Shown here in pieces: positions 21,765-64,000 of a DNA stretch of 64,000 nucleotides; the first letter of the stretch is position 1, and every line of letters begins with the position of its first letter. Origin of the DNA: Candidatus Caenarcanales bacterium (lineage in GTDB: Bacteria; Cyanobacteriota; Vampirovibrionia; 2-02-FULL-35-15); assembly GCA_020050435.1 (NCBI GenBank), contig JAGVKQ010000011.1:3350-67349 (forward strand). Reading direction: 5' to 3'. Position numbers and translations under genes: made by a program. The notes below the pieces were generated by a model, which saw nothing but the letters and a program-made list of their open reading frames with translations, had not been told where the DNA came from and made no database searches.

Positions 21765-23435
21765 TTAAAGCTCAGCAGCAGCTAATTCACCACGTTTAAT
21801 AATTTCTTCTTTAGTTAGCTTTTCTTCACTAGAAACTGATTTGTAAAATTCAGAATCATATCTTCTAGTACGCACTACAATAGGCATTGGCATAGCATAG
21901 CCAAACATTAATACTTCTTGTTTAGGGTTTAGCTGGGAAAGAATAGCTTTTAATTCCTGTCCACCAGACTCCCCTACAAACACGGCATTGATATCATTCT
22001 CATCATTTAAAAGAAGAGTGGCTCTCGTTCCTATCTGAGACATTATTTCATTGTCGATTCCTGATGGTCTTTGATCTACGATTAAAAGGGTGACATTATA
22101 TTTTCTAAGTTCACGAGCTATGATGCCAAAAGTTGAAAATCTGGCTACCTGTGGAGATAAAAACTTATGTGCTTCTTCTATAGTGATAACTAATCTCTTA
22201 GGCGGCTGGTATTTATCTGGTGCTAATAAATACTTTTCAGTCATATCTACATAAGCTGCATGGATGTGTCTGGTAATAATGTTTGCAGCTAGCATATAAC
22301 TTTTTAAATTACTAAGTCTTCCAAACTGTAAAACTACACTTCTGCCACTGGTTAGAAAGCTAAGAATTTTTTTAATGCCATCAAAACTAGTGACTGATTT
22401 TAAGTATTTTACTGAATCTACTAATGTGTTTAATTTTCTTTGAAGAGCTAGTATGGAACCCTGATTAGCACCATACTGAGCACAGAACTCTTCTATGTGT
22501 CCTACTGTCATATTGCAAAGTTTATTAAACCAGTCTCTTTCATATTCTCTTTGAATCATTCGAGCATGATCTATCATAGCCTCAGATAAGCCTAGTTCGC
22601 TTTGAAGTAGTTCTAAGTCTTCTATATCTATCTGGCTAAATGCTATTTCTAATGTCTGTGCATCTTTAAATGTATAAGATTTATTGTCTGGATCTAGTGT
22701 GAAAACTTCTATCTTGTCGTTAAATAATTGCTTTAATCCTTTTGATGAGGCTTGTTTTTCATCTGTACCTTGCCAGCCGTACTCATTGTGCATGTCAAAA
22801 ATTAATACACTGGCAGCATCTTTTTTCAATATTCCTGAAAGAAGTATTCTGCTCAAGAATGATTTTCCTGTTCCAGACTTTCCAAACACAGCATTTGATC
22901 TTTCTACAAACTTTTCAAGATTTATACAAAGTGGAATGTCCATTTCAGCAGGATAGCCAATGTGAAAGTTTTTATTATTCTTTTCATCTTTCCCAAAGAT
23001 TTCTTCTATGTCATTTTCTGTGGCTTCATATACAGAGGAGAAGTGTGGTGGAATGGTTTTTACTTTAGGGACATCTTCTAAAGACTTTTTATTAGTTAAG
23101 TCGACCATTAAGAATGGAGTTAAATGTACTAATCCATATACAGAAGTACCCTTTAAAACCTCTTTAATAAAACTATCGTTAGGTGATGGAATATGATTTA
23201 AGAATTTAGCATTAGAAGATTGAAGTTCTATATCTGTAACCATTGAGAAAAATTTATTTCTTTCTCCTTGTATGACTACGAATTTCCCAATTCTTAATTT
23301 TTCAATATCATAGCTATTGTCTAATTTTAAAAGTAAGCCTTTAGTGAAGGATCCTGAGACCACCTGACCAACGAGGCTTTGTGCTAACGTGCCTACGTTC
23401 CCACGTTCCGACGAATCTGTTTTATAGTCCTTCAT
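21765..23435 (-). CDS. HerA/FtsK-like P-loop ATPase (DUF87-type, HerA-like helicase)
   Basis: 556 aa with an N-terminal beta-barrel-like region, Walker A FGKSGTGKSF, the HerA-typical ITIEEAHKF block, and Walker B/Arg-finger region LLIVDQRPSGID. Confidence 0.75.
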   Translation of the reverse strand: MKDYKTDSSERGNVGTLAQSLVGQVVSGSFTKGLLLKLDNSYDIEKLRIGKFVVIQGERNKFFSMVTDIELQSSNAKFLNHIPSPNDSFIKEVLKGTSVYGLVHLTPFLMVDLTNKKSLEDVPKVKTIPPHFSSVYEATENDIEEIFGKDEKNNKNFHIGYPAEMDIPLCINLEKFVERSNAVFGKSGTGKSFLSRILLSGILKKDAASVLIFDMHNEYGWQGTDEKQASSKGLKQLFNDKIEVFTLDPDNKSYTFKDAQTLEIAFSQIDIEDLELLQSELGLSEAMIDHARMIQREYERDWFNKLCNMTVGHIEEFCAQYGANQGSILALQRKLNTLVDSVKYLKSVTSFDGIKKILSFLTSGRSVVLQFGRLSNLKSYMLAANIITRHIHAAYVDMTEKYLLAPDKYQPPKRLVITIEEAHKFLSPQVARFSTFGIIARELRKYNVTLLIVDQRPSGIDNEIMSQIGTRATLLLNDENDINAVFVGESGGQELKAILSQLNPKQEVLMFGYAMPMPIVVRTRRYDSEFYKSVSSEEKLTKEEIIKRGELAAAEL

Positions 23436-42946: not shown

Positions 42947-43547
42947 AGACTTTAAACCATATTTGGTGGCTATTACCGGAAACTTTGGATCTGGTAAAAG
43001 TGCTGTAGGGAGTCTACTAAAAAATGATGGGTTCTTACTCGTTGACACAGATGAAATAGTAAATGAAATATTAAAAAATATAAATCCTGTTACGGAGAAG
43101 ATACTTGCTGAATTTGGAAGTGATATTAAAAATCTAAATAGTGACTATTTGATAAACAAAAAAAAATTAGCTTCAATTGTTTTTATTGATGAAACTAAAC
43201 GGAAAAAACTAGAGTTTATTATTCATCCTGCTGTTGAGCAAACCTTATCTACTATATTTTCTTTAAGCCAATTGGAAAAAGTCATTTTTGTTTTAGTCCC
43301 ATTACTGTTTGAATGTAATTTAGAAGGAAATTACCATGAAGTCTGGTGTGTGAAATGTGATAAGAATGTCCAGTTGTCTCGACTTGAAGGTAGAGGCTTT
43401 TCTATTGAAGAAGCTGAAAAAAGAATATCTTCTCAAATGTCTCAAGATGAAAAAGAAAGTCTTTCTGACTTTGTTATTGATAACTCAGCCCAAATAGAAA
43501 ATACTAAATCTCAAATTGATAAAAGATTAAAGAACGGGTTCAATTAA
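42927..43547 (+). CDS. coaE: Dephospho-CoA kinase
   Basis: The Walker A motif is VAITGNFGSGKS and the size is 206 aa. Confidence 0.85.
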   Translation: MKKRKNKDFKPYLVAITGNFGSGKSAVGSLLKNDGFLLVDTDEIVNEILKNINPVTEKILAEFGSDIKNLNSDYLINKKKLASIVFIDETKRKKLEFIIHPAVEQTLSTIFSLSQLEKVIFVLVPLLFECNLEGNYHEVWCVKCDKNVQLSRLEGRGFSIEEAEKRISSQMSQDEKESLSDFVIDNSAQIENTKSQIDKRLKNGFN

Positions 43548-44105
43548 CCCATAATTCCCATCTTTTCTTAGATAGAGAGTGTTTATTTGAGTTGTGCTTG
43601 CATTAATGAAAACATAAAAGTCATGATCAATCATATCTAGGTGATGTAAAGCTTCTTCAGGGGTCATAGGATGAAGTTTGAATTTTTTAGATTTGATTAT
43701 CTTGCCTTCTGAGTGATCTTTTCCATTTGAATTACCATTGACTAACGATGGACTCACTAAGTCCGTAGGTAGGTCTGGTCTGTCTGCATGTTGTAAGCTT
43801 CTATAATGTTTGGCTTTGTATCTTTGTATTTGCCTGTCTAATTTATCTACTACAGTGTCAATGCTTGCATACATATCGTCAGTAGCTTGTTCGGATCGAA
43901 TAATCTTTCCATCTAAAGATATAGTTACTTCTGTAATGTTGTTTTTTGTGATTCTAGGATTTTTTTCTACACTTAACTTCACTCTGACTTCATGGTCTTT
44001 GATTATCACATCATAATGATTTTGTAATCTTGTAAGTTTTTCTGTTATATAGTCTTTGAGTGCTTCAGTCAGTTCTATATTTTTTCCTTCAATTATTATT
44101 TTCAT
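43527..44105 (-). CDS. hpf: Ribosome hibernation promoting factor (long HPF, sigma-54 modulation protein family)
   Basis: MKIIIEGKNIELTEALKDYITEKL is the canonical HPF/YfiA N-terminus. The long form has a C-terminal dimerisation domain. The true start is probably the internal ATG at 44105. Confidence 0.85.
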   Translation of the reverse strand: MKIIIEGKNIELTEALKDYITEKLTRLQNHYDVIIKDHEVRVKLSVEKNPRITKNNITEVTISLDGKIIRSEQATDDMYASIDTVVDKLDRQIQRYKAKHYRSLQHADRPDLPTDLVSPSLVNGNSNGKDHSEGKIIKSKKFKLHPMTPEEALHHLDMIDHDFYVFINASTTQINTLYLRKDGNYGLIEPVL

Positions 44106-44228
44106 ATTTGCTCCTAATAAGATTAAACCATAAATAATTATAGTTTGCTTGCTGTTTTTAGACCATATAAGTTCATCCTTTAGCATGAATTACTTGTAAG
44201 CAAATGATTCCCACTGTAGAATTATGTT

Positions 44229-46588: not shown

Positions 46589-46690
46589 GGAAGACCATTT
46601 AAACCATAGGACTATTGAGACTATAACGTTTTAAAGTATGGTCTTATCGTCTCCATAGTCTTTATTGTCTTTCCCTTAGTCTTCCCATAA
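46589..46690. repeat. Family B palindromic repeat, copy 1 (agaccattt...ataggactattgagac...atggtcttatcgtctccatagtcttt)
   Basis: It shares about 90 bp with 50054-50140 and carries the GGACTAT / ATAGTCC inverted cores. Confidence 0.5.
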
Positions 46691-46764: not shown

Positions 46765-47289
46765 ATGGCAGTTCCTACTGCAACAACTTCAGCACCAACA
46801 CCATCATCAACTGGATCAGCTCCTGCTGTTCAACCAGTTGATCCAAATAATCCTCCAAAGCCAGCAGCACCGACTACTGGAACAGGTGTAGCCGCACCTG
46901 GAGATAAATTTGTTAAAGCTGATAATGCTGAGACTAATGACACAGGAAAAGAAGAAGAAGCAAAAGGTGCAATGGCTTCAGTAAAAGCAATTTTAAGTAG
47001 AATACATTTATTAATAACATCTACAGTAAGGATTGTTAATTCTATGGCAAGGTTTGCCATATTTGGTACTGTTGTAGGTTTATCTAGACAAGGTGTTGAT
47101 TTACTTCAAGGATTACTAGGATCTGGTGATTTTAAGAATTCTGCTTTAAAAGGTAATCTCACAGGACTCTTGAGCTTAATTAATACTGTTTTAGGATCAG
47201 CTAAGGACTCTGCTAGTTTTTGGCAAGATGACATTAAAATTGTTAGAGATTTGAAAAAAGGATTTGATGATAACTCTAAACTTGCATAA
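46765..47289 (+). CDS. Hypothetical protein (174 aa) with a Pro/Thr/Ala-rich N-terminus and a hydrophobic middle
   Basis: There is a Shine-Dalgarno (AAGGA). The N-terminus is AVPTATTSAPTPSSTGSAPAVQP. It is the first gene of the co-oriented hypothetical cluster. Confidence 0.45.
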   Translation: MAVPTATTSAPTPSSTGSAPAVQPVDPNNPPKPAAPTTGTGVAAPGDKFVKADNAETNDTGKEEEAKGAMASVKAILSRIHLLITSTVRIVNSMARFAIFGTVVGLSRQGVDLLQGLLGSGDFKNSALKGNLTGLLSLINTVLGSAKDSASFWQDDIKIVRDLKKGFDDNSKLA

Positions 47290-47300
47290 ATTCTAGGTAA

Positions 47301-47331
47301 GGGTCTTGCATTCAAGACCCTCTGTTTATCT
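47301..47331 (+). terminator. Terminator hairpin gggtcttgcattcaagaccc followed by a T-rich tract
   Basis: It has a 7-bp GC-rich stem. The loop carries the gcattca motif shared with two other terminators in this cluster. Confidence 0.5.
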
Positions 47332-47445
47332 CCATCGAATAGTTTTACGACACCCCTTTTTTCATAACTTTCCTTTAATAATCCTCTGCTTAACTACATC
47401 CACGTAGGAGAGAAGTCTCAAATTGTATTTAGAAAAGGGTGATTT

Positions 47446-48090
47446 ATGTCAGATGGATTAAATATAGTAAGTCAAAATAATAAGAACTTAAGCACAGTTC
47501 TTGCGGCCGATAGTGTTAAATCAGACTTTCAAGGTAGTGACCAAAGAAAGCTTGGTGAAGACCTTATAAAAGAAAGCCTTAAGCATGCAGGTGATTCACA
47601 AGCACAAGCAGAAAAAGCAAGAGACTATTTAAATGCAGCAGATAATTTAGAAAGAATGGCTAAGGCTGTAAGATCTCAAGCAAAAAGAATTAAAGAAAAT
47701 GATGTTAAGCCTGAAGATGCAGTAAAACAAATATCAGAAGTTTTTGGTAACCAAGTTCAAATGCCTCTTCCTAAAGATGCTACACCTGAACAATTAGAAA
47801 GTATTGCAGATGATTTAGAAGCAAAAGCAAAAGAAAATAGAAGAATTGCTGATGATCTTTTAAAAGACTCTGAACATAAAGAAGCATTATCACTTAAATT
47901 AAAAGAACAAGCTATGTTAATGGTAAAAAAAGAAACAGGAGCAGATTCTCTTAGGATGAAGTCTGTAACTGCTCACAATGAAGGACTAAGTATGGTCTTT
48001 AAAAAGTTAGGAATTTACAACGTAGATATGCAGTACAAAGAACAGGTTGCATATGCTAGTAGAAAGGCTTCAGAGAAAGGTTTAATGTAA
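47446..48090 (+). CDS. Hypothetical charged alpha-helical protein (214 aa)
   Basis: There is a Shine-Dalgarno (AAAGGGTGA). The protein is K/E/A/D-rich and predicted helical, with no motif. Confidence 0.45.
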   Translation: MSDGLNIVSQNNKNLSTVLAADSVKSDFQGSDQRKLGEDLIKESLKHAGDSQAQAEKARDYLNAADNLERMAKAVRSQAKRIKENDVKPEDAVKQISEVFGNQVQMPLPKDATPEQLESIADDLEAKAKENRRIADDLLKDSEHKEALSLKLKEQAMLMVKKETGADSLRMKSVTAHNEGLSMVFKKLGIYNVDMQYKEQVAYASRKASEKGLM

Positions 48091-48129: not shown

Positions 48130-49980
48130 ATGTTTATATTACAGATAAATAATCCAGCACAAGTACAAAAAACAGGCAAAGGAAATGGAATTACAGATTT
48201 TCCTAATGGACAGGCAGCATGGAATGGAACAACCTATGGTTCACGTAAAGAAGCTGAAGCTGCTTGGAACGCCAGCTTTAACTCTAGGGGTGGTATGAGG
48301 GCTCCCCAAAACAATGGTGGTGGTAATGCTAAGGCACAACAAAAAGTAGCTCGTGGAAACGATATGATGCAAGGTGGTCATGCAAAAATTCAAGTAGGTA
48401 ATGATGATGTCCAAGGTGGAGGAGCTAAAGTAGAAAAAGGAAATGGAAATGTTAAGTCTGGTGGAGAGAAAGTTAAAACAGGAAATGAAAAAGTTAATGG
48501 AGGAAATACTAAACTCAAGTCAGGAAATGAAAAGATTGCAACAGGAAAAGGAAAGGTAGAAACTGGTAATACTAAAATAGAAGAAGGTAGTGCAAAAATT
48601 AAAGAAGGTCAAGAGAAACTAAATGGATCTCCTGCTAATGCAGATGCTCAAACTGGAATTAAAGAAGGAGAAGCTAAAATAAACTCCGGTAATGAAAAAA
48701 TTACAGGTGGTCAAACAAAACTTACAGATGGTCAAGCAAAACTTACAGATGGTCAAGGTAAGGTAACCGCTGGACAAGGAAAAGTTACTACTGGACAAGG
48801 ACTTGTTCAAACAGGTCAAGGAAACATACAGGCTGGAGGTGCAAAAGTTCAGGCAGGTCAAGCTACCGTTGCAGCAGGACAAGCTTTAGCTGGTCAAGCT
48901 CAGGCATTAATGGCAGATCCTAAAACTGCTGCTCAAGGTCAGGCAATGATGCAGCAAGCACAAGGTCAAATTCAAAAAGGACAAGCTGAAATCCAGGAAG
49001 GTCAACAAAAAATTCAACAAGGACAAAAAGAAGTTGCTGATGGTCAGTCTCAAATTCAAACTGGTCAAGCTGAAGTAAGTCAAGGGAATGCTGATGTTCA
49101 GAAAGGTCAAGCAGATATACAAGCTGGACAAGCAGATATTCAACAAGGACAGCAAGAAGTACAAGAAGGGCAACAAAAAGTAACTGAAGGTCAAGCAAAA
49201 ACAGATGGTAGTGCTGAAGCTGGTGAAGCAAATGAACTTATTAATGCAGGTAAAGCATTACTTGATGCAGGAAAAACTGAAGTCAAAGCTGGCAATGATG
49301 ATGTCAAAGCAGGAAGTGATGAAGTTGAAGCCGGAAAGAAAGATGTAGATGTTGGAAGTAAAGAGGTTGGAGAAGGAAATAAACTTGTAGAATTAGGAAA
49401 TAAAGATGTGGGCGATGGAAATAAAGATGTAGATAAAGGTCAAAAGAATATTGGTGATGGAAATAAAGATGTCCAGGCTGGACAAGATTTGGTAAAAGAA
49501 GGTGACGCTGCAGGCGGTGGTGGTGGTCCTGGCGGAGCTGGTGCTGGTGGTGCTCAACCACAAACCCCAGATGCATCAGGTGGAGCAAGTCCTGGTGGTG
49601 GTGATGGAGGCGGTGGTGATGGTAAAGAAGCAAAATCCGGTGATGGAACTGCTAATGGATACCTTCAGGCTGCAAAAGCTTTATTAAAACAAATTGGACA
49701 AATCTCGCAAGCAATGTCTGGAAATGCAAATCCTATTATTCAGATAGCTAAAAATCTTACGAATAAAGGACTTGCTGAACAAGCAGTTGCATATCTTGAA
49801 GCTGCACAGGTAGATTCTACCATTGGTGGTCAGTCTATAAATCAAGATATTATTCTTACAAAGGCTATGGCATCTACTTGTAAAGGTGATGCAGATACAA
49901 ACATAAACTTCTGGAAAGAAACTCTTGCAGACAACAAATCTCTTGGTAAGGCCACTCATGACTTAGCGAAGATGGCGTAG
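48130..49980 (+). CDS. 616-aa repeat protein made of more than 100 tandem heptads of the form G-[QN]-x-[KD]-[VI]-x-x, a poly-Gly linker and a conserved ~110-aa C-terminal module
   Basis: There is a strong Shine-Dalgarno (AAGGAGAAAAG). Examples of the heptads are GNEKVNG, GNTKLKS, GQADIQA and GQQEVQE. The C-terminal ANGYLQAAKALLKQIGQISQAM...DLAKMA module is shared with two downstream paralogs. Confidence 0.6.
   Translation: MFILQINNPAQVQKTGKGNGITDFPNGQAAWNGTTYGSRKEAEAAWNASFNSRGGMRAPQNNGGGNAKAQQKVARGNDMMQGGHAKIQVGNDDVQGGGAKVEKGNGNVKSGGEKVKTGNEKVNGGNTKLKSGNEKIATGKGKVETGNTKIEEGSAKIKEGQEKLNGSPANADAQTGIKEGEAKINSGNEKITGGQTKLTDGQAKLTDGQGKVTAGQGKVTTGQGLVQTGQGNIQAGGAKVQAGQATVAAGQALAGQAQALMADPKTAAQGQAMMQQAQGQIQKGQAEIQEGQQKIQQGQKEVADGQSQIQTGQAEVSQGNADVQKGQADIQAGQADIQQGQQEVQEGQQKVTEGQAKTDGSAEAGEANELINAGKALLDAGKTEVKAGNDDVKAGSDEVEAGKKDVDVGSKEVGEGNKLVELGNKDVGDGNKDVDKGQKNIGDGNKDVQAGQDLVKEGDAAGGGGGPGGAGAGGAQPQTPDASGGASPGGGDGGGGDGKEAKSGDGTANGYLQAAKALLKQIGQISQAMSGNANPIIQIAKNLTNKGLAEQAVAYLEAAQVDSTIGGQSINQDIILTKAMASTCKGDADTNINFWKETLADNKSLGKATHDLAKMA
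48340..49500 (+). repeat. Coding 21-bp tandem repeat array, the heptad repeats of the 616-aa protein
   Basis: There is a clear 21-nt periodicity, for example ggtcaagcagatatacaagct / ggacaagcagatattcaacaa. Confidence 0.7.
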
Positions 49981-50006
49981 TCTAGCGATTAGATTATTAG
50001 AAATTG

Positions 50007-50040
50007 AAAAGAGAAGGCATTCATGGTCTTCTCTTTTTGT
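50007..50040 (+). terminator. Terminator-like hairpin aaagagaaggcattcatggtcttctcttt followed by ttgtttgttt
   Basis: The stem is about 9 bp with one mismatch. The loop contains gcattca. Confidence 0.45.
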
Positions 50041-50053
50041 TTGTTTATCTTTT

Positions 50054-50140
50054 AAGACCATTTGACAATAGGACTATGGAGACCATGTCGTCTCACAAAA
50101 ATGGTCTTATGGTCTCCATAGTCTTTATAGTCTACCCCTA
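50054..50140. repeat. Family B palindromic repeat, copy 2 (taggactatggagaccat ... atggtctccatagtcttta)
   Basis: Its arms form an approximately 18-bp inverted repeat, and it is a near-copy of 46589-46690. Confidence 0.5.
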
Positions 50141-50217: not shown

Positions 50218-51129
50218 ATGAGACATATAAATTCAACAAACAATATTAATAAAAAACCTGATGTAAATAAGTCAGATAATGCTTCTCAGGAGTCTCCTGC
50301 CCTAAAAGCAGCTAATGCAAAACTCTTACAATCAATGCAATCACAAGCTCAATCAATAAGAAATTTGTCACAAGCCCCATCACAAAATAATCAGGATTTA
50401 AATGTAATTAAAGATAGAAATCAATCTTTATTAGACTTTGATAAAGCTAAAGTTGAATCATTAAAAGAAGATTCTACTAATACAAATAATCAATCAATAG
50501 AAACAGAGGATGCTTCTGGTGGTAGTGCTTATAGTGGTGGATTTTTATTAGGCAAAGATGATTCTACTGGATATAAGGGATATGACCAGTCTCGTGCAAA
50601 TGATTGGAAAGAAGGTAAAGGAATATATTCTACTGGTGGAGCATATTCAACATATACAGGAAATGGTGCAGAAAATCTTAGTGGTTCTGGAGGAGCTGGT
50701 TCTGGTAATGCTGGAAATCAAAATGTAGGAGCTAGTTCTGGTAATGCAAATTCTGGTGGAGGAGTTTCTACTTCTGATAGCGGAAGTGCTGCTGGAAGTG
50801 CAAACGGATACTTGCAGGCTGCAAAAGCATTATTAAAACAAATCGGACAAATCTCACAAGCAATGGCTGGAAATGCAAATCCTATTATTCAGATAGCTAA
50901 AAACCTTACTAATAAAGGGCTTTCAGAGCAGGCAGTAGCATATTTAGAAGCAGCTCAGGTAGATACTACTCTCGGTGGTCAGGCTATAAATCAAGAAATT
51001 ATTTTAACGAAAGCTCAGGCAAGTACTATTAAAGGTGATTCAGATACTAATATTAATTATTGGAAAGAAACTCTTGCAGACAATAAATCTATGGGCAAGG
51101 CTACTCATGACTTAGCTAAGATGGCGTAA
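50218..51129 (+). CDS. Hypothetical protein (303 aa), paralog family member with an MxHINS N-terminus, a G/S/N-rich middle and the conserved C-terminal module
   Basis: The N-terminus MRHINSTNNINKKPD...KAANAKLLQSMQSQAQS is shared with the 51366 gene. The C-terminal 110 aa are about 85% nucleotide-identical to the 3' end of the 616-aa gene. Confidence 0.6.
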   Translation: MRHINSTNNINKKPDVNKSDNASQESPALKAANAKLLQSMQSQAQSIRNLSQAPSQNNQDLNVIKDRNQSLLDFDKAKVESLKEDSTNTNNQSIETEDASGGSAYSGGFLLGKDDSTGYKGYDQSRANDWKEGKGIYSTGGAYSTYTGNGAENLSGSGGAGSGNAGNQNVGASSGNANSGGGVSTSDSGSAAGSANGYLQAAKALLKQIGQISQAMAGNANPIIQIAKNLTNKGLSEQAVAYLEAAQVDTTLGGQAINQEIILTKAQASTIKGDSDTNINYWKETLADNKSMGKATHDLAKMA

Positions 51130-51187: not shown

Positions 51188-51365
51188 TCTCTTTTACACC
51201 AACATTTTTATTGGACATTGTTCTCCTTGTTCTGTTCTCCCCTAAAAGTCCTTTTTGCCTTTATTCTCCTTTGTTCTCCTTTGTTCTCCATAACTTTCCC
51301 TTAAATATTCCCCTGTTAAATACCCTTTAACTAGCTCAAAACTAGTATAGGGATATTACATTGTT

Positions 51366-52643
51366 ATGAAGCATATAAATTCAATAAATGGAATTAACCA
51401 ACAGGCCGATTTAAGTAAGCCAGGTAATAACGTTGAGGATGTTTCATCACAAAAAGCTGCTAACAGTAAATTGCTTTCTTCTCTTCAATCACAATCTCAA
51501 TCAATGCGAGCTGCAGCACAAGATAATTCACAATTAAGTTCTAGTAAAATAAATGAAAGAGCAGAGTACTCTAAAGATTTTAATAACTCAAATAAAACAT
51601 CACAAGAGTCTAGCGAAACATCAGTAAATAAAATTAAAGAATCTATTGATTTAATGAGTAGTTCATTTTTCAAAAAGACTGAATCAAGATTACTTAAAGA
51701 ACAAGCAAAAACTGAACCTGGTGAAGTTGCTCAGGAATTAAAAAGACAATCTAAAGAAAAACTAAAAGAGGCAATAGCAGATTTTAGAGGTTCATTTAAG
51801 GCTTACAATAAATCACAAGAAGAGGATATGAATGCATTTCAAGCAAGCATGGACGCTTCTAATTCTCAAGACTTAGCTTCTGGTGCACAATCTCAATCTA
51901 ATCAAGCTCAAGTTAAAGCGGTGACTTATAATAATCAGGCAAATAGAACATCAGCAGAAGCTACAACTGTACAAACCCAACAAACACAAAGTCAGTCAGT
52001 GCAACCTCAGTCATCACAAACTCAGTCAGGAGAAACTAAGGATGCTTCTGGTGGGAGTTTATTTGGACCTAATGCAGGATTATTTTCAAATCCTTCCCCT
52101 ACTGCATACAATGGGATGGATCAATCTCGTGCTAATGATTCTCGTAATAGTAAAGGAATCTTTGCTACTGGAGGCGGAGTCTCAGAAATTACAGGAAATG
52201 GTGCAGTAAATTCTAACAATAATGCTAATGCTAATGCTAATGCTAGTGCTGGTGCTTCAAATGGTGCAGATCCTTCCGTTGACACTAATGGTGCTGATGG
52301 ACTTAGCGCTGCAGGTAATGCATATTTAGATGCAGCACGTATGATGCTTAGAGTAGTTATGCAAGTAACGATTGGTGCGAGAAGTTCAAATCCAATTGTT
52401 CAAATATCAAAAAACCTAACTAATAAATCTTTGTCCGACCAAGCTATAGCATATTTAGAAGCAGCAAACGTTGACACTGCTCTTAATGGTACAGCAGTAA
52501 ATCAACAAATAATTCTTACTAAAGCTCAAGCAAGTACTATTAGTGGTGAAGCACAAACAGGTATTAATTACTGGAAACAAGTTCTTGAAGGTAACAAACA
52601 ACTTCAAAAAGAAACACATGATATGTCTAAGGCTGCAGGGTAA
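51366..52643 (+). CDS. Hypothetical protein (425 aa), the third paralog, with an MKHINS N-terminus, a Q/S/N-rich middle and a more divergent copy of the C-terminal module
   Basis: MKHINSINGINQQAD...KAANSKLLSSLQSQSQS at the N-terminus and C-terminal GNAYLDAAR...NPIVQISKNLTNKSLSDQAIAYLEAANVD...ILTKAQAST...NYWK are shared with the other paralogs. The 5' leader is near-identical to that of the 50218 gene. Confidence 0.6.
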   Translation: MKHINSINGINQQADLSKPGNNVEDVSSQKAANSKLLSSLQSQSQSMRAAAQDNSQLSSSKINERAEYSKDFNNSNKTSQESSETSVNKIKESIDLMSSSFFKKTESRLLKEQAKTEPGEVAQELKRQSKEKLKEAIADFRGSFKAYNKSQEEDMNAFQASMDASNSQDLASGAQSQSNQAQVKAVTYNNQANRTSAEATTVQTQQTQSQSVQPQSSQTQSGETKDASGGSLFGPNAGLFSNPSPTAYNGMDQSRANDSRNSKGIFATGGGVSEITGNGAVNSNNNANANANASAGASNGADPSVDTNGADGLSAAGNAYLDAARMMLRVVMQVTIGARSSNPIVQISKNLTNKSLSDQAIAYLEAANVDTALNGTAVNQQIILTKAQASTISGEAQTGINYWKQVLEGNKQLQKETHDMSKAAG

Positions 52644-55018: not shown

Positions 55019-55105
55019 GGACAGGTGTTCGAGTGGTTTATGAAGATAGTCTTGAAAACTATTGATGCCGTAAGGTATCCGGGGGTTCGAATCCCTCCCT
55101 GTCCT
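55019..55105 (+). tRNA. tRNA-Ser (anticodon UGA), class II with a long variable arm
   Basis: Manual fold: acceptor ggacagg/cctgtcc, D-arm ttc/gaa, anticodon stem atagt/actat with loop cttgaaa (anticodon TGA), a long variable arm, and T-arm ggggg-ttcgaat-ccctc. CCA is not encoded. Confidence 0.8.
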
Positions 55106-63790: not shown

Positions 63791-64000
63791 AGCCATGGAG
63801 AGTTTGATCCTGGCTCAGGACGAACGCTGGCGGCATGCCTCATACATGCAAGTCGAACGCCCCGCAAGGGGAGTGGCGTAAGGGTGAGTAACGCGTAGGA
63901 ATCTGCCTTAGACTGGGGGATAACCTGGGGAAACCCGGGCTAATACCGCATATTGCCGAGAGGTGAAAGATTTATCGGTCTAAGATGAGCCTGCGTATGA
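63791..64000 (+). rRNA. rrs: 16S ribosomal RNA, 5' end only; the gene continues beyond the window
   Basis: AGAGTTTGATCCTGGCTCAG at 63799, then GACGAACGCTGGCGGCATGCCTCATACATGCAAGTCGAACG, then GAGTAACGCGTAGGAATCTGCC. Confidence 0.9.

Follow-up and report, generated by a model that had tools for sequence, protein, structure and literature searches.

The question raised by this locus is what kind of structure is built by a protein, hereafter C616, in which a glycine recurs at every seventh residue along a large part of the chain. The gene lies in the window analysed here, which is the whole stretch of 64,000 nucleotides, and its start codon is preceded by an AAGGAG ribosome-binding site located 8 nt 5' of the ATG. 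The array extends from residue 69 to residue 460 (nucleotides 48334–49509), in agreement with the coordinates initially proposed for it, and both the 7-residue unit of this 616-residue reading frame and the 21-nt period of its DNA were confirmed: residue identity at lag 7 is 0.40 versus 0.10 ± 0.015 in residue shuffles (z = 20), and DNA identity at lag 21 is 0.567 versus 0.362 in codon shuffles (z = 15). An exact spacing of the glycines is observed in four runs that begin at residues 76, 180, 284 and 374 and comprise 13, 11, 11 and 14 heptads, respectively; the last two heptads of the fourth run are already in the linker that follows and were left out of the array count, so that the array proper has 47 in-phase glycine heptads. 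The original prediction spoke of more than 100 tandem copies, a figure that has to be corrected since the whole array has room for only about 56 heptad lengths. Its description of the unit as an obligate glycine plus a single hydrophobic residue was accurate: glycine occupies position 1 in 47/47 heptads, and V, I, L or M is found at position 5 in 45/47 (V 26, I 12, L 5 and M 1 in the tabulated heptads). Of the 44 heptads tabulated, 33 carry Q or N at position 2 and 34 carry K, D or E at position 4, and positions 3 and 7 are often charged. The expected switch of the charged residues, from K-rich to Q-rich and then to D/K-rich sub-blocks, is also real, with net charges of +7, +2, -5 and -9 for the four segments. 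Period and composition rule out collagen and the ice-nucleation repeat, as had been anticipated. An RTX protein secreted by a type I system was likewise discarded: the period is 7 and not 9, no RTX-type family was matched, and inspection of the sequence revealed no nonapeptide pattern (GGxGxDxUx) in the Gly-rich linker.

Table 1. Features of C616 and of the genes that surround it; positions are those of the window and residue numbers (aa) are those of C616.
Feature	Positions	Strand	Description
A174, small distant module paralogue	46765..47289	+	Pro-rich N-terminus; module profile 84 bits
B214, upstream partner gene	47446..48090	+	214 aa, helical; 39 nt before C616
C616 coding sequence	48130..49980	+	616 aa; from the ORF listing
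C616 N-terminal segment	48130..48324	+	aa 1-65; predicted mostly disordered, pLDDT <50
Heptad block 1	48355..48627	+	aa 76-166; 13 units G-N-x-K-[VIL]-x-x; within predicted helix aa 66-164
Heptad block 2	48667..48897	+	aa 180-256; 11 units G-Q-x-K-[VLI]-T/Q-x; within predicted helix aa 171-261
Central turn region, '...AQALMADPKTAAQGQAMMQQAQ...'	48898..48978	+	aa 257-283; proposed distal hairpin tip
Heptad block 3	48979..49209	+	aa 284-360; 11 units G-Q-x-[EKD]-[IV]-Q-x, Q-rich; within predicted helix aa 264-355
Heptad block 4	49249..49500	+	aa 374-457; 12 units G-[NKS]-[KD]-[DE]-V-x-x, D/K-rich; within predicted helix aa 364-460
Gly/Pro-rich linker	49510..49650	+	aa 461-507; 22 Gly, 4 Pro; predicted disordered
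Conserved C-terminal module	49651..49977	+	aa 508-616; predicted three-helix bundle
Terminator-like hairpin	50005..50039	+	3' of the C616 gene
D303, paralogue	50218..51129	+	C-terminal module 90% identical to that of C616
E425, paralogue	51366..52643	+	C-terminal module 54% identical

An assembly artefact or a non-coding repeat could be suspected from the repetitive nature of the region, from its skewed base composition (42% A, 26% G), and from the fact that the exact C616 protein was not found in a collection of 15 billion proteins. Nevertheless, the mean nucleotide identity between units is 57–60% (42% at third codon positions) and the longest exact internal repeat has only 21 nt, which indicates an old array kept by selection and not an artefact. 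Moreover, the frame stays open for 616 codons and is accompanied by a ribosome-binding site and a terminator, and in no fewer than nine independent contigs, from metagenomes or MAGs, the position of C616 is taken by a heptad-rod protein with the same N- and C-termini; an artefact is therefore considered extremely improbable. The codons used at the conserved positions are mixed (GGA 23, GGT 18, GGG 2 and GGC 1 for the glycine, and at least 11 different codons for the residues at position 5), and, given that the units are approximately 58% identical in DNA, this points to selection on the protein.

The array was expected to be followed by a Gly/Pro-rich linker and a conserved C-terminal module, and both are indeed present (Table 1). 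When the module was modelled by AF2 with a 10-sequence alignment, the prediction had a pLDDT of 89 and a pTM of 0.76. The module is very rare: a search of 1.84 billion cluster representatives gave 49 matches, of which about 46 are real, and module-profile searches of 5.8 billion proteins matched 2 and 5 proteins. In all but one of the real matches it is located at or near the C-terminus. Three of the genes next to C616 encode paralogues that carry it; one of them, A174, could not be aligned in DNA with the copy present in the congeneric relative L005, the alignment being lost over positions 46827–47358. The partner gene B214 is kept in every related locus that covers its position; its product matched no family, and a profile search of the PDB returned designed coiled coils only. 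Looking up the exact sequences of D303 and B214 led to no contig. At the other end of C616, the first four residues, MFIL, are common to the same-position proteins L001 and P0035 of relatives, and the motif '...ASF..RG.MRAPQNNGGG' is common to the L005 protein at the same position. Inspection by eye of residues 1–65 disclosed no signal peptide and no hydrophobic stretch, and for the complete protein, domain and family searches, together with inspection of the sequence, revealed neither a signal peptide nor a membrane segment, and no domain known for secretion or anchoring. A phage or defence-system origin was discarded, given that PHROGs and PADLOC returned nothing specific and that no relatives were detected when viral contigs were scanned. 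Regarding the host, which is uncultured and probably Melainabacteria-like, the presence of an outer membrane can be deduced from the Mla system encoded nearby. One of the related contigs (L009) is labelled Candidatus Melainabacteria, and the label Gammaproteobacteria of a related MAG (L010) is doubtful; the window encodes a long-form HPF, and this form is unusual in Gammaproteobacteria.

In relatives, the proteins encoded at the position of C616 are between 370 and 822 residues long, from which it follows that the length of the rod is not tightly set; the possibility that the array acts as a strict molecular ruler was discarded for this reason. Their repeats are also instructive. The corresponding region of L005 contains 31% Ala and is formed by A-x-x-[KR]-[VLI]-x-x heptads, and other same-position proteins show classical coiled-coil heptads rich in Ala, Glu, Gln and Lys. 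It had been argued that one glycine and one hydrophobic residue per heptad do not fit a canonical coiled coil. This is correct in the sense that C616 is not a textbook leucine zipper with hydrophobic residues at both a and d, since one core position is hydrophobic and the other is invariably Gly; however, the +4/+3 spacing of Gly1 and the V/I at position 5 is that of an a/d core stripe in which one core position is small, and on this point the objection fails. A pattern of this type is known. Small-X6-Small motifs (G-X6-G and A-X6-A) give rise to a tight antiparallel packing of helices, and the Alacoil is their soluble analogue (PMC12541321; Gernert et al. 1995). C616 resembles them in having a small residue every seven along one helix face and a beta-branched or aliphatic residue one turn away; antiparallel helices, and their packing, are predicted for it. 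The exchange of Gly in C616 for Ala in L005 at that same heptad position is precisely what is predicted for the Small-X6-Small class (PMC12541321). C616 differs from the known G-X6-G cases in that these are short, with 2–4 heptads, and mostly located in membrane spans, whereas its own chain is highly polar and soluble and has 47 heptads in succession.

The same register has also been described as the X-X-X-Leu-X-X-Gly repeat (TIGR03057), which is present in tens of tandem copies in YhgE/Pip, EsaA/YueB-type and MMPL proteins. Comparison of the full-length C616 with 5.8 billion proteins gave as sole matches two proteins, one YhgE/Pip (E = 4.6e-10) and one MMPL, both driven by the repeat; no others were obtained because low-complexity words filled the candidate list of this search. 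The MMPL protein was not matched by TIGR03057. In contrast, the YhgE/Pip protein (P0001) reaches 114.7 bits in 13 stretches, with Gly runs of up to 15; its heptads have Gly at position 1 and the hydrophobic residue at position 5, as in C616, with Leu in 38/50, and BLASTP aligned both proteins in register over 327 residues with E = 2e-14. For its part, C616 shows in-phase Gly runs of 13, 11, 11 and 14 units and a hydrophobic residue three positions before and four after each Gly, although this is V/I rather than Leu. From these similarities, C616 could be viewed as a true member of TIGR03057, i.e., a homologue of the extracellular stalk of YhgE/Pip/EsaA, membrane proteins of phage reception or type VII secretion, that has lost the membrane domains. 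Nevertheless, the TIGR03057 model, with a curated cut-off of 18.6 bits, does not match C616 at E <= 1, and a profile made specifically from the heptads of Pip scored -22 bits after bias correction, lower than residue shuffles. Position 2 is Q/N in C616 and Ala in Pip. Furthermore, family searches detected no YhgE/Pip (N- or C-terminal), EsaA or MMPL domains in C616, no hydrophobic segment is visible in its sequence, and its host belongs to a different lineage with a different envelope. Short periodic repeats easily become alike by convergence, and membership in TIGR03057 is regarded as very unlikely. The view that this repeat lies outside the textbook families holds for the curated TIGR03057 model, but not for the register, which was already described there, nor for the pattern, known from Small-X6-Small. 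A search by sequence in the PDB found no structure of an X-X-X-Leu-X-X-Gly array, and a literature search found no structural study of TIGR03057 or xxxLxxG. [quoted passage not shown]

A beta-solenoid was among the folds suggested at the outset, and it gained one borderline match: PF21300 (LbR_Ice_bind) scored 36.9 bits, against a gathering cut-off of 30 bits, when the whole protein was searched (2 stretches, residues 374–453, corresponding to block 4). In formal terms this is an HMM match to a described family, the result that TIGR03057 failed to give. Accordingly, the array, or at least block 4, could be a beta-roll or beta-solenoid like the ice-binding protein of the grass Lolium perenne, each heptad making up one side of a coil whose turns would hold Gly and whose core would hold Val. 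Both proteins repeat Gly, Asn/Asp and Val with a 7-residue period, and in C616 small or hydrophobic residues tend to occur at positions 1, 3, 5 and 7 and polar ones at positions 2, 4 and 6, so that the hydrophobic-moment spectrum of blocks 1–3 peaks at 154 degrees and not at 103 degrees. However, the Ala-rich region of L005 is also dominated by the 154-degree peak, and this analysis is therefore not diagnostic. On its own, block 4 scored 22.5 bits, under the cut-off; moving the Val from position 5 to position 6 raised the score to 37.8 bits, which indicates that the native register is not that of PF21300 but is displaced by one residue, and other residue swaps and shuffles abolished the match. 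The PF21300 match arises from a shared periodicity in the wrong register. In a beta-roll, the often-charged positions 3 and 7 of C616 would be buried, and its residues are charged instead of the Ser, Thr and Asn of the grass protein, which itself was not found by phmmer at E <= 1. In addition, AF2 predicts a helix in block 4 (residues 364–460, pLDDT 86–91), and the relatives carry at this site either the 31%-Ala or the classical coiled-coil sequence, both of a helical type. For these reasons, a beta-roll seems improbable.

The single-sequence AF2 prediction divides the array into four helices of 91–99 residues (Table 1), with block mean pLDDT values of 80–94. Two facts temper this result: AF2 in this mode can over-predict helix for periodic polar sequences, and the 18% of Gly in the array is unfavourable in isolated helices. 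Replacement of Gly1 by Ala in block 4 produced, at most, weak matches to coiled-coil families. There are, however, features that we count as independent of AF2. The middle of the array holds the turn DPKTAAQGQ, which is conserved in relatives and includes Pro264, next to the helix break predicted at residues 262–263; within the array, DNA conservation with the distant relative L016 is also confined to this turn (86.8% identity over 48911–48948, the rest being unmatched). The two other helix breaks, at residues 165–170 and 356–363, are 95 and 97 residues away from this turn, leaving arms of 196 and 197 residues on either side of it, and the same symmetry is seen in the L005 protein, which has prolines at 144, 224/226 and 311. 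Breaks arranged symmetrically around a conserved turn suggest that the chain forms a hairpin with arms of these lengths.

The most probable alternative is that the array is an intrinsically disordered polar spacer punctuated by Gly, i.e., an entropic tether, whose heptad period is a relic of duplication. This would be in line with its Gly content and with the fact that over 60% of its residues are polar or charged, with a region that cannot be aligned between relatives and whose proteins vary from 370 to 822 residues, and with the best sequence match in the PDB, a low-complexity (GEAKLTN)n insert of the P. vivax HPPK-DHPS. Likewise, the resemblance to the Pip heptads is largely lost after the bias correction of HMMER, and the L001 protein keeps only the Gly period (its position 5 is often polar, and hydrophobic in no more than about half of the units), which is more in keeping with a weakly structured chain than with a packed core. 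On the other hand, Gly1 is invariant, from four codons, and position 5 hydrophobic in nearly all units even though these have diverged in DNA, which indicates purifying selection on two positions that a pure spacer would not need; the symmetry of the breaks around the conserved turn and the pLDDT values are also at odds with disorder. The flexible spacer proposed at the beginning thus stays as a live rival, to which we assign a tentative but appreciable probability; the trimeric helix proposed with it received no support. The best-supported reading, ahead of the solenoid, the trimeric helix and the flexible spacer, is an antiparallel helical hairpin rod; that the array is a water-soluble G-X6-G coiled coil, most likely in the form of such a long hairpin, is a proposal to which we give an even chance.

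In the hairpin rod, V/I at position 5 and Gly at position 1 would lie on the same helix face with a +3/+4 spacing, forming a core stripe in which a beta-branched hydrophobic residue alternates with Gly. This stripe would permit a very close, left-handed antiparallel packing of the helices, and it would be flanked by Q/N at position 2 and K/D/E at position 4, in the manner of the e and g residues of ordinary coiled coils. The outward arm (residues 66–261) would be reversed at DPKTAAQGQ into the return arm (residues 264–460), and since each arm would be interrupted at a matching position, the outcome may be either a kinked hairpin of approx. 29 nm or an elbow-folded four-helix bundle of approx. 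14 nm. The conserved turn would be at the far tip, and the N-terminal 65 residues would be at the opposite end, together with the linker and the C-terminal module. Such a rod may function as a projecting stalk or spacer, its sequence being free to vary across lineages provided that the heptad frame is preserved and position 1 stays small, and the shared module would be the assembling, anchoring or targeting part of all the members of the family. The lack of a recognizable signal peptide, membrane segment or secretion or anchor domain counts against this putative projecting stalk.

In structural terms, the predicted rod is best matched by long antiparallel coiled-coil arms that bend at an elbow. 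As in the arms of SMC, MukB and Rad50 and in the hairpins of RipA, EnvC, PcsB and the colicin R-domain, there would be two antiparallel helices of approx. 100–200 residues with matched interruptions; unlike these proteins, C616 has a Gly/Val core that is not Leu-rich, it has no head, hinge or enzyme domains, and it shows no sequence kinship with them. A second comparison can be made with the streptococcal M protein and PspA (PMC1464397), where a variable heptad rod is also followed by a Gly/Pro-rich linker and a conserved C-terminal region, and where rods of relatives are extremely divergent. These fibrils differ from C616 in that they have a signal peptide and an LPXTG motif or choline-binding repeats, and in that their rods are parallel dimers, in contrast to the intramolecular hairpin predicted here; the C-terminus of C616 is the putative three-helix module and lacks LPXTG.

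The most likely interpretation is that the C616 rod exemplifies a known type of packing, a small residue every seven, in a rare and uncharacterised family. A broader and rather doubtful possibility is that the conserved cluster located between ilvH and mlaEFD represents an undescribed, Sec-independent cell-envelope or appendage system of Melainabacteria-like bacteria that displays hairpin rods, C616 being the first long, soluble, natural G-X6-G coiled coil. Such a system would bring together A174, B214, the rod itself and at least two module-bearing paralogues, and its variable rods (approx. 14–29 nm, an A-X6-A version of which occurs naturally in a relative) would be displayed or assembled by means of the shared three-helix module and the short conserved peptides at the N-terminus. 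So far, what governs Small-X6-Small packing has been worked out mainly on short membrane helices and designed peptides. If the hairpin reading is true, C616 would be an unusually long and clean natural case of packing with Gly every seven in a water-soluble protein; its Gly version and the Ala version of the relative would constitute a ready pair for testing the rules of this packing, and C616 would offer an initial view of how repeats of the X-X-X-Leu-X-X-Gly class are structured. C616 also draws attention to a very rare family, of about 46 clusters among 1.84 billion representatives, that has several paralogues, varies between relatives, and is found at a conserved locus of a poorly known bacterial lineage.

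The rod protein C616, whose open reading frame is preceded by a good ribosome-binding site (AAGGAG, 8 nt 5' of the ATG), carries a heptad array that is evident in the protein as well as in the DNA. The lag-7 identity of the protein reaches 0.40 (residue shuffles, 0.10 ± 0.015; z = 20), and the lag-21 identity of the DNA reaches 0.567 (codon shuffles, 0.362; z = 15). Glycine recurs at an exact seven-residue spacing in four runs that start at residues 76 (13 units), 180 (11), 284 (11) and 374 (14). The final two units of the last run fall within the linker, and the array proper comprises 47 heptads; the more than 100 copies of the original prediction were about twice too many. The rest of that description was accurate, i.e., the Gly at position 1, a single hydrophobic residue at position 5 (V, I, L or M in 45 Gly heptads), the sub-blocks of differing charge, the Gly/Pro linker, and the conserved C-terminal module. 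Among the 44 tabulated heptads, Q or N predominates at position 2, and K, D or E at position 4. Successive block starts are separated by 104, 104 and 90 residues; each interruption therefore shifts the heptad phase by one residue. The exact 616-residue sequence is absent from a collection of 15 billion proteins that does include its four neighbours on the same 92-kb contig; the repeat gene may be missed or differently called by annotation pipelines.

Features of the rod locus and its surroundings (window positions unless a related contig is named)
Feature	Position	Strand
HerA-type ATPase gene (DUF87 + HAS-barrel)	21765-23435	
Long-form hibernation factor	43527-44186	
Upstream element, A174 copy	46603-46676	
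A174, small module paralogue	46765-47289	+
B214, helical protein	47446-48090	+
C616 open reading frame (616 aa)	48130-49980	+
Periodic array of C616 (aa 69-460)	48334-49509	+
Terminator-like hairpin after C616	50005-50039	
Upstream element, D303 copy	50065-50139	
D303, module protein	50218-51129	+
10-bp tandem repeat	51258-51289	
Upstream element, weaker E425 copy	51263-51301	
E425, module protein	51366-52643	+
tRNA gene	55019-55105	
16S rRNA gene, 5' end	63792-64000	
PIN-domain gene and small ORF	L005 8004-8684; L006 4423-5103	
Two small ORFs after the rod gene	L005 11901-12318	-
Rod-position protein with EF-hand-like loops	L016 7309-8820	
A174 counterpart	L005 8852-9376	

The array is old, and its two key positions have been kept at the protein level. 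Four codons encode the invariant Gly and at least eleven the residue at position 5, pairwise identity among the 21-nt units is only 57–60% (42% for third codon positions), and the longest exact repeat is 21 nt. Because of this divergence, the mixed codons and the short exact repeats, recent slippage or a collapsed assembly was ruled out as the source of the array.

A comparison of the whole protein with 5.8 billion sequences returned only an MMPL protein and a YhgE/Pip protein. The alignment with the latter covers the X-X-X-Leu-X-X-Gly heptads of that protein (NCBIfam TIGR03057) and keeps the register, a hydrophobic residue standing four positions after the Gly. However, the curated TIGR03057 model gave no match to C616 at E <= 1, and a custom profile from the Pip heptads scored below shuffles after HMMER bias correction. 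In addition, the Pip heptads have Ala at position 2 and Leu at position 5, where C616 has Q/N and V/I, and membrane domains are absent on either side of the array. For these reasons the C616 array was treated, from these comparisons, as the same kind of repeat as TIGR03057 and not as a demonstrated member; that it is a true homologue of the Pip repeats is very unlikely. The top sequence match of the array in the PDB (aa 176–236 with residues 592–652 of 5z79_A, E = 1.1e-7) is a low-complexity insert, (GEAKLTN)n, in Plasmodium vivax HPPK-DHPS. This protein is unrelated but shares the Gly-x-x-K-L-T-x heptad, and its insert is matched by the YhgE/Pip protein as well.

The sole Pfam match above threshold was PF21300, the grass antifreeze beta-roll, with 36.9 bits on block 4 (cut-off, 30 bits), and it was tested with permuted versions of this block. 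Native block 4 alone scored 22.5 bits, and a version with Val at position 6 instead of position 5 scored higher, at 37.8 bits. Every other swap or shuffle abolished the match, and replacing Gly1 with Ala left only weak coiled-coil family matches. The PF21300 match reflects a shared period and composition, in the wrong register. A match to a described repeat family, by which the original prediction would be refuted, is thus given only formally, by PF21300, and not by TIGR03057.

AlphaFold2 without an alignment predicted four long helices (aa 66–164, 171–261, 264–355 and 364–460; block-mean pLDDT 80–94), with disorder in the linker and in the first 65 residues. The middle interruption (aa 262–263, '...MADPKTAAQGQ...') has arms of 196 and 197 residues on either side, and the outer interruptions lie 95 and 97 residues from it; the protein at the rod position in L005 has the same symmetric layout of Pro-containing breaks. 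The middle turn is also the only part of the array that aligns in DNA with the more distant L016 (86.8% over 38 nt), and its motif is seen again in further relatives. Since the interruptions are symmetric and the turn is conserved in DNA, the hairpin is supported independently of AlphaFold2, and the chain most likely goes out along one arm, turns at a conserved tip and returns. The rod would be a kinked hairpin of ~29 nm, or a four-helix bundle of ~14 nm if folded at the matched breaks; its predicted topology resembles that of the YhgE/Pip/EsaA ectodomain. In these helices positions 1 and 5 would form an a/d stripe, with a core alternating Gly with V/I. This corresponds to Small-X6-Small (G-X6-G, A-X6-A), a described pattern of tight left-handed antiparallel packing with a soluble precedent in the Alacoil (PMC12541321). 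We give about even credence to C616 being a helical hairpin rod of this type that holds its distal turn away from the base.

The locus order, i.e., coaE, hpf, pdxA, folE, ilvH, small module paralogue, 214-aa helical protein, rod protein, one to three further module proteins, mlaE, mlaF and mlaD, is kept in nine or more other contigs from metagenomes or MAGs, one of them (L009) labelled Candidatus Melainabacteria. Two contigs, L005 and L006, are congeneric with the window (flanking genes 76–94% identical in DNA; B214 95% identical in protein), and their DNA homology to the window ends at window position 48333 and restarts at 49496, exactly at the array borders. In place of the Gly heptads their 544-residue protein has a region with 31% Ala and A-x-x-[KR]-[VLI]-x-x heptads. 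This exchange of Gly for Ala is a prediction of the Small-X6-Small class and argues, together with the wrong register of PF21300, against a beta-solenoid, which is quite unlikely. Gly heptads occur in L001 (runs of 17 and 18) and L016 (two runs of 8), and classical Ala/Glu/Gln/Lys heptads in L010 and L012. Position 5 is often polar in L001, which keeps alive, as a tentative possibility, the reading of the array as a disordered, Gly-punctuated tether or weakly structured spacer. Rod-position proteins range from 370 to 822 residues, which argues against the strict ruler that had been suggested; they have in common the central turn, both ends, the heptad frame and one position with a small residue, and vary in the remaining sequence and in length. 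In L016, two EF-hand-like loops, NLDGNDKVSRDEL and DKDGDGLLQEAEL, lie at aa ~440–490 between the rod and an Ala/Gly/Pro linker, a hint that some members of the family bind calcium.

Gene content of the locus varies too, since relatives carry a toxin-antitoxin-like pair (a PIN-domain gene with a small ORF) between ilvH and the cluster, and two small ORFs after the rod gene, all of them absent from the window. A174, like the heptad array, is not alignable in DNA with its L005 counterpart, whereas the adjoining B214 is 92% identical. B214, a conserved helical protein always directly upstream of the rod gene, is named 'ribosomal protein L17' in IMG, a name with no Pfam or NCBIfam support. The DNA 5' of A174 and that 5' of D303 share an element whose 39-nt core is 90% identical between these copies and consists of short direct repeats containing GTCT/GGTCT; the module-protein genes may have in this element a common operator or promoter. 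The intergenic tandem repeat 5' of E425 is CCTTTGTTCT x 3.2. Elsewhere, the HerA-type ATPase gene lies amid housekeeping surroundings, one tRNA gene lies between mlaD and the next ORF, and the 16S rRNA gene continues beyond the end of the window. The window also encodes a hibernation factor of the long form (S30AE with a C-terminal domain), which is unusual in Gammaproteobacteria and makes the Gammaproteobacteria label of the related MAG contig L010 doubtful.

The last 109 residues of C616 are common to the two downstream genes, with 90% (D303) and 54% (E425) identity, and A174 is distantly related to the module; its N-terminus is Pro-rich, and it carries a 'D[EK]FV' motif. A module profile gave only 49 matches, ~46 of them real, among 1.84 billion cluster representatives, and in all but one real match the module reaches the C-terminus or stops about three residues or fewer before it. 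AlphaFold2 with a 10-sequence alignment predicted a confident three-helix bundle (pLDDT 89, pTM 0.76), for which fold and profile searches returned generic bundles only. Each type of member begins with a short motif of its own, 'MFIL...' for rod proteins and 'M.(D)I[KR]H[IL]..[IL]' for the rest, and members show no visible signal peptide or evident export signal. Searches of Pfam, NCBIfam, PHROGs and PADLOC gave no meaningful family match, and viral relatives were sought and not found. In its succession of variable rod, Gly/Pro spacer and conserved C-terminus, C616 is reminiscent of fibrillar surface proteins, e.g., M protein and PspA. In C616 the N-terminal segment and the linker-tethered module would form the base, from which the conserved turn would be held distally, and the module is a putative common assembly, anchoring or targeting element of the family. 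The C616 array is a real and striking repeat, of half the claimed length and of an already described repeat logic, in a rare, uncharacterised protein family.
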